Program-made: the position numbers and the translations under genes
Notes under the pieces: generated by a model
Told to the model about the DNA's origin: nothing
What the model saw: only the letters and a program-made list of their open reading frames with translations
The model's database searches: none
DNA from: a phage
Sequence record: PZ583738.1
Strand: one strand, 5' to 3'
Length of the DNA: 64,000 nt
In this document: positions 38,661 to 39,146 of the stretch, piece after piece
How positions within the stretch are numbered: the stretch's first letter is position 1
Layout: the number at the start of each line of letters is the position of its first letter

Positions 38661-38871
38661 ATTGACAATTGAAGGCTCTGATGAAGCTCTGAAAAGATTT
38701 GTTGAATGGTTTAATGGGCCAGGTGAACAAGACTTTCTGGAAGTTTGGGATGGTGGGCAATGGAACGGTAAAGAAATTGTTTATCCGACTACCTATATCT
38801 CCGTACAAGGTTGTCCTGATGGCCTTCGTTTGGTAGAATATGATATCGCAACTGGCGAGGAAGTGAAATGA
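38653..38871 (+). CDS. hypothetical small protein
   Basis: 72 aa from ATG 38653. Confidence 0.45.
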   Translation: MSKLTIEGSDEALKRFVEWFNGPGEQDFLEVWDGGQWNGKEIVYPTTYISVQGCPDGLRLVEYDIATGEEVK

Positions 38872-39146
38872 TTGAAGATATAAAGGGTTATAAACCACAT
38901 ACTGACGATAAAATCGGTAAAGTGAACGCGATTAAAGATGCAGAAGTTCGTCTTGGGTTAATGTTTAAAGCTCTGGAAGAAGAGCATGTTACTCATTATA
39001 TGGGTTTAGACACCGAAGAGGTTTCTGAACAAGAATTGGACCAGGCTCATGAACGCATCACCCAGATTCGCAATGCAATTGACCGTCTGAAAGAAGCGAG
39101 CATGTGGGCGTGTCGTTCCGTTTTCCAACCCGAGGAAAAATACTAA
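38868..39146 (+). CDS. hypothetical small helical protein (candidate Vs.4/Acb2-like by position and size)
   Basis: 92 aa, charged; lies second upstream of the regB-like gene where T4 has vs.4; no sequence confirmation. Confidence 0.45.

Follow-up and report, generated by a model that had tools for sequence, protein, structure and literature searches.

The 64,000 nt stretch of phage DNA analysed here (sequence record PZ583738.1, referred to throughout as the window) carries at positions 38868-39146 of its plus strand a T4-like (Gaprivervirus-like) phage gene whose 92 aa product is very probably an orthologue of Vs.4/Acb2, and as such an anti-CBASS sponge, which by homology would be expected to bind its ligand, assemble as a hexamer and inhibit CBASS. 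This identity had been put forward in a preliminary description purely as a guess from position, the open reading frame (ORF) being the second upstream of regB. The position is correct, vs.3 (39146-39451) and then regB being the next genes, and the guess has been borne out: Pfam, PHROGs, solved structures and the predicted fold are four independent lines that agree on Vs.4/Acb2, as do the residues expected to contact the ligand. The gene is already known, is ordinary and lies in its usual place, and adds no new biology.

Family assignment and homologues

On sequence criteria, the ORF lies far beyond anything expected by chance. That it is a real gene follows from the presence of vs.4 homologues in 1232 phage records, as found by tblastn, and from the mostly synonymous character of the differences that separate its conserved ends from those of T4. 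The product matches the Pfam family PF24729 (Acb2/Tad1, hairpin domain) with 57.8 bits (E=1.3e-15), around twice the gathering score of 27 bits, the alignment covering the entire model (positions 1-58 of 58) and residues 7-87 of the protein. Its match in PHROGs is to phrog_717 (E=4.2e-29), which was named as the family of Vs.4 homologues by Jenson et al. (2023; PMC10097602). Direct alignment with T4 Vs.4, suggested as a check in the preliminary description, gives an end-to-end match at 64.1% identity (BLASTP, E=1.7e-36), and a phmmer search of the PDB returned a sole significant match, 7UQ2 'Vs.4' (E=2.6e-28), pairing query residues 1-92 with chain residues 2-89. The 7UQ2 entry is the T4 protein in complex with cGAMP. 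With a family profile built from 33 homologues, the significance of the 7UQ2 match rises to E=1.7e-41 and the Acb2 protein of Pseudomonas phage PaMx33 (8H2J and 8IXZ) is also found, at E~5e-5; the profile alignment places PaMx33 Y11, K26 and P90 opposite window residues Y8, K23 and P88.

Conservation of the domain across the family was assessed using the 120 homologues listed from a collection of 5.8 billion proteins. PF24729 is present in each of the 118 full-length sequences among them, the two truncated entries being those without it. The closest of the homologues listed are the proteins of VR20, E33 and WG01, at 97-99% identity, and near-identical proteins bear the UniRef label 'Acb2/Tad1 hairpin domain-containing protein'. 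NCBIfam gave no family match for the ORF or for five of its neighbours.

The AlphaFold2 monomer model, calculated on the alignment of 33 homologues, has a mean pLDDT of 87.6 and a pTM of 0.71, and consists of a hairpin of two long helices, spanning residues 13-46 and 54-85, with no strands. When this model was used in a Foldseek search, chains of 7UQ2 were the top matches (E=1e-7, TM 0.73-0.78), followed by the Acb2 structures 8H2X and 8H2J; everything below these was a generic helical hairpin with E>0.1. The N- and C-terminal ends of the monomer have low pLDDT values (49 and 54, respectively), as would be expected for pocket-forming ends that become ordered only in the hexamer.

Gene structure and genomic context

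The coding sequence runs from an ATG at 38868 to a TAA at 39144-39146, exactly the coordinates originally described, and the product is charged, as had also been remarked, as well as acidic, with 20 D+E and 13 K+R residues and a pI of 5.0. The start codon shares nucleotides with the TGA (38869-38871) that ends the upstream ORF, the two forming the sequence ATGA, which suggests translational coupling between these ORFs; at the other end of the gene, the stop codon runs into the ATG that follows it, as TAATG. Close packing of this kind is characteristic of T-even early genes that are clustered and co-translated. A scan for sigma-70 promoters and terminators detected 13 promoter-like sites where 11.7 were expected, which is to say chance frequency; a strict MotA-box pattern had no match within 36.5-39.2 kb, and nor did the T4 late-promoter pattern (TATAAATA) within 36-40 kb. 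Hence no dedicated vs.4 promoter can be claimed. It probably shares a transcript with the neighbouring genes of the denV-regB cluster, which is the default assumption, and its translation is probably coupled to theirs.

Table 1. Features of the vs.4 region in the window. Percentage identities are to the T4 orthologues, from BLASTP searches of window proteins against the annotated T4 cluster.
Feature	Position	Strand	Evidence and remarks
denV orthologue			78% identity
vs.8 orthologue	37768-38364	+	63% identity; 181-198 aa
vs.7 orthologue			46% identity
Unnamed ORF, 72-77 aa	38638-38871	+	phrog_1986, E=2.8e-34; fills the vs.6/vs.5 slot
Shine-Dalgarno-like GAGGAA	38857-38862	+	Read from the sequence; 7 nt between GAGG (38857-38860) and the ATG
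vs.4/acb2 CDS, 92 aa and TAA	38868-39146	+	ORF list, PF24729, phrog_717, 7UQ2
Conserved N-terminal segment, codons 1-33	38868-38966	+	30/33 residues identical to T4
Hypervariable hairpin tip and first half of helix 2, codons 34-72	38967-39083	+	11/35 aligned residues identical to T4
Conserved C-terminal segment, codons 73-92	39084-39143	+	18/20 residues identical to T4
vs.3 orthologue	39146-39451	+	68% identity
regB orthologue	39451/39508-39966	+	60% identity; PF10715, E=6e-72
vs.1 orthologue			65% identity
vs orthologue			45% identity
tk.4 orthologue	40878-41351	+	57% identity
tk.2 orthologue			49% identity

The surrounding genes are arranged as in T4, in the order denV, vs.8, vs.7, vs.4, vs.3, regB, vs.1, vs and tk.4, with vs.6 and vs.5 replaced by a different sequence between vs.7 and vs.4. 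The preliminary description had recognised five small ORFs between denV and the regB-like gene, in the position of the T4 vs.3-vs.8 cluster. The placement holds for vs.8, vs.7, vs.4 and vs.3, all in the T4 order, but vs.6 and vs.5 have no counterpart; furthermore, six ORFs were found rather than five (an Ip-like ORF at 37317-37655, the vs.8-like gene, vs.7, the unnamed 72-77 aa ORF, vs.4 and vs.3), and the vs.8-like gene is too long to be called small. In the annotation of Shigella phage SP18, the order is e, denV and Ip10, followed further along by vs.8, vs.7, an unnamed gene, vs.4, vs.3, regB, vs.1, vs and tk.4. Around vs.4, a 3.8 kb stretch has 92-96% identity to the Escherichia phages TH54 and CJ20, and ~95% to SP18 and phage VR20. 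Judged from its sequence, the window comes from a myovirus of T4 type, close to Gaprivervirus.

The unnamed ORF immediately upstream of vs.4 was considered as a candidate for T4 vs.6 or vs.5 and rejected, the best match being to vs.5 with E=0.007 over 16 aa; it has no Pfam match and no significant similarity to any protein of the T4 cluster. As a variable slot beside an anti-defence gene, this position could hold another counter-defence gene. On the other side of vs.4, the regB ORF opens with a GTG at 39451, yet the Pfam RegB match only starts at residue 23. Translation probably begins at an ATG at 39508 (MTTIDSS...), such that vs.3 and regB are separated by 56 nt, as in T4.

Several other nearby genes have features of note. 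The Tk.4 orthologue contains a Macro domain (PF01661, E=1.8e-6), raising the possibility of ADP-ribose binding or removal. The vs.8 orthologue has weak matches to P-loop-type families, namely Terminase_6N (E=2.4e-4, just under the cut-off), AAA_30 and AAA_14, along with one to the phrog_2 terminase large subunit (E=5.5e-4), and may be an uncharacterised NTPase. Two small plus-strand ORFs, at 36566-36835 and 37317-37655, flank denV. The second of these is the equivalent of Ip10 in SP18 and falls in phrog_2667, 'internal head protein' (E=1.7e-41); only a short N-terminal motif is common to the pair and T4 IpII, which suggests that they are lineage-specific internal head proteins. More distantly, a 150 aa ORF at 18276-18728 (+) encodes a TnsA-like endonuclease N-terminal domain (PF08722, E=1.9e-22), and heads a block of plus-strand genes adjoining a divergent block of large minus-strand ORFs.

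Conservation of functional residues

Work on T4 Vs.4 that combined mutagenesis, crystallography, ITC and AUC with a CapV assay has established it as a hexamer that binds three molecules of cGAMP with a Kd of ~30 nM (PMC10097602). In this structure Y8 and F82 stack on the bases, with polar contacts made by Y8, H11, K23 and R79; hexamerisation requires L29, A66, A73 and A77 and, more mildly, F33; and a genetic screen recovered the loss-of-function alleles T12I, S74N and A77I (PMC10097602). Global alignment reveals that all five of the cGAMP contacts are identical in the window protein, as Y8, H11, K23, R83 and F86. The residues of the hexamer interface, if not the assembly itself, are likewise all identical (L29, F33, A70, A77 and A81), as are the screen residues T12 and S74 (T12 and S78 here). 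The remaining position from the screen, L60, is I64 in the window protein; the in vitro function of T4 Vs.4 is unaffected by the L60F substitution (PMC10097602). Y8, H11, K23, A70, S78, R83, F86 and P88 are invariant among the 120 homologues listed.

These residues are concentrated at the two ends of the protein. Codons 1-33 include the contacts Y8, H11 and K23, the helix cap T12 and the interface residues L29 and F33, whilst codons 73-92 include A77, S78 and A81, which are interfacial or proximal to the ligand, the cGAMP contacts R83 and F86, and P88. Relative to T4, the first segment has 14 nucleotide changes that give rise to 3 amino acid changes, and the last has 11 that give rise to 2. 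The predominance of synonymous changes indicates purifying selection on both of the ends that build the pocket.

A hypervariable hairpin tip

Between these ends lie residues 34-72, which run from midway along helix 1, through the loop, to midway along helix 2. Only ~31% of the residues aligned with T4 are identical in this segment, which is 4 aa longer than in T4, and its DNA identity to T4 is 45%, relative to 82-86% across the rest of vs.4. Such hypervariability is family-wide: among the 120 homologues listed, mean pairwise identity is 32% in the centre versus 86% at the termini, and the central segment varies between 27 and 44 aa in length. Relaxed constraint, cassette-like recombination and diversifying selection are all candidate causes of the divergence at the hairpin tip. 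With its divergent and longer centre, the window protein could differ from that of T4 in affinity or ligand spectrum.

One form that such a difference might take is suggested by PaMx33 Acb2, which has an additional pocket on its three-fold axis, lined by the equivalent part of helix 2. Cyclic trinucleotides bind there by way of R67 and T74, and hydrophobic contacts are made by A70 and I71 (PMC10312549). The divergent centre of the window protein might similarly add a three-fold pocket for cA3, cAAG or another signal, making it a dual sponge, and the segment lining this pocket is indeed the part that differs from T4. The equivalents of the PaMx33 pocket positions, which lie within codons 34-72 together with the invariant interface residue A70, are T65, R68, N69 and D72, compared with D, T, I and T in T4. 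Of these, R68 faces the pocket, and arginine is the commonest residue at this site (59/120 homologues listed). However, the R67 and T74 that are essential for cA3 binding by PaMx33 (PMC10312549) correspond here to T65 and D72, and the acidic residue at position 72 would repel phosphates. Arginine occupies the R67-equivalent position in only 2/120 of the homologues listed, and aspartate or glutamate the T74-equivalent position in 82/120. Moreover, the kink that widens the PaMx33 pocket, at E64-P65, has no proline counterpart in the window protein (R63), in the model of which the helix of residues 54-85 is continuous. T4 Acb2, having D61 and T68, does not bind cA3, and the D61R substitution fails to restore such binding (PMC10312549). 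A dual sponge of the PaMx33 kind is therefore unlikely, and there is similarly only a small chance that residues 34-72 form a second site with a specificity unlike those of either T4 Acb2, which has none, or PaMx33 Acb2, for which it is cA3. Were there such a site, the rapid turnover of the tip would represent an arms race in which the contested element is either another immune signal or a host system, of the Panoptes type, that senses the sponge. The expectation is instead of a sponge for cyclic dinucleotides only, like T4 Acb2.

Inhibition of type I Thoeris is known for 10 of the 46 Acb2 homologues that have been tested (PMC12393519), hence membership of the family does not alone fix the ligand, and the window protein could in principle be a Thoeris-directed variant that sequesters 3'cADPR rather than CBASS signals. 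In Acb2_43, which acts in this way, extra N- and C-terminal beta-strands together with L6, V7, H5 and K19 replace the tyrosine stacking pocket (PMC12393519). By contrast, the window protein keeps the complete set of T4 cGAMP pocket residues, has T4-like termini and is modelled by AlphaFold2 without beta-strands, such that a Thoeris-directed role seems highly improbable.

Predicted role in anti-CBASS defence

Working by orthology with T4, the Vs.4/Acb2 protein would be produced early in infection. Six hairpin protomers of ~10.7 kDa would then be predicted by homology to assemble into a hexamer of ~64 kDa with three pockets, each built where the N- and C-terminal ends of two protomers meet. One cyclic dinucleotide would be trapped in each, either 3',3'-cGAMP or a related molecule made by host CD-NTases, with Y8 and F86 stacking on the bases and H11, K23 and R83 providing hydrogen bonds or salt bridges. 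By sequestering the signal, as opposed to degrading it, the sponge would keep it below the level at which CBASS effectors are activated, allowing phage replication to be completed.

The window also encodes Acb1, as a 151 aa protein at 22531-22986 (+) that matches PF23474, 'Anti-CBASS protein Acb1', with 200 bits (E=1.7e-59). This ORF directly follows gp57A (22295-22531), which is itself preceded by the dNMP kinase gene gp1 (21618-22295). With both Acb1 and Acb2 encoded, the phage has the same anti-CBASS pair as T4, the two-pronged equipment of which, an Acb1 nuclease of cyclic oligonucleotides and an Acb2 sponge, was discussed by Cao et al. (PMC10312549). The confirmation of this standard T-even pair is of help to annotation and to the prediction of host range.

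Possession of Acb2 may also carry a cost. The Panoptes system (OptSE) is triggered when Acb2 of T4 or Bas38 binds its decoy 2',3'-c-di-AMP, the Acb2 protein being both required and sufficient for this, and triggering is abolished by the binding site mutations Y8A and F82C (PMC12657218). As Y8 and F86 are intact in the window protein, it should, by analogy, trigger Panoptes as well. The phage is hence predicted to be resistant to cGAMP-type CBASS and, by analogy with T4 and Bas38, sensitive to Panoptes.

The gene does not appear to be complete in every relative. The tblastn match in T2 (PV958097.1) covers only residues 9-92, and so is without the start and Y8, whilst that in EP32a (OR544954.1) covers only residues 2-29, which suggests that acb2 is truncated or disrupted in some T-even phages. 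T2 is an outlier in being unrestricted by OptSE (PMC12657218), an escape that would fit with its truncated acb2 match. Since these records imply that the gene can be lost or damaged, the copy in the window might itself be inactive or decaying, or might encode a hairpin protein with an unrelated role. Against this, the full-length reading frame is uninterrupted and is served by a good ribosome-binding site, the functional residues are all conserved and the terminal changes relative to T4 are mostly synonymous; we regard either possibility as very remote, and favour a functional Vs.4/Acb2.

Comparison with known systems

The best characterised relative is T4 Vs.4 (7UQ2; PMC10097602), with which the window protein shares 64% identity over its full length, a position after vs.7 and before vs.3 and regB, the two-helix hairpin fold and an identical set of cGAMP contact and hexamer interface residues. 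They differ in the low identity and 4 aa greater length of residues 34-72, in the presence of I64 in place of L60 and in the residues around the pocket axis, which are T/R/N/D in the window protein and D/T/I/T in T4. Upstream, T4 vs.6 and vs.5 have been replaced by an unrelated small ORF. The PaMx33 Acb2 protein (8H2J/8H2X/8IXZ; Huiting et al. 2023; PMC10312549) belongs to the same Pfam family and has the same fold, with Y8, K23 and P88 aligned, and its hexamer with three bound cyclic dinucleotides exemplifies the mechanism that would be expected here by analogy. However, identity is only ~20%, and with T65 and D72 replacing R67 and T74, binding of cA3 is not expected.

The hairpin domain is also common to Tad1 (Thoeris anti-defence 1), which combines it with an additional domain and binds gcADPR. 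Tad1 can be rejected as an identity for the window protein, since PF24729 spans residues 7-87 of the 92 and leaves too little sequence for a second domain; the PDB sequence, profile and fold searches retrieved no solved structure of Tad1. The nearest equivalents of all are the Vs.4 proteins of VR20, SP18, WG01 and E33, which are 97-99% identical to that of the window and differ from it by one to three substitutions, the SP18 copy already being annotated as vs.4.
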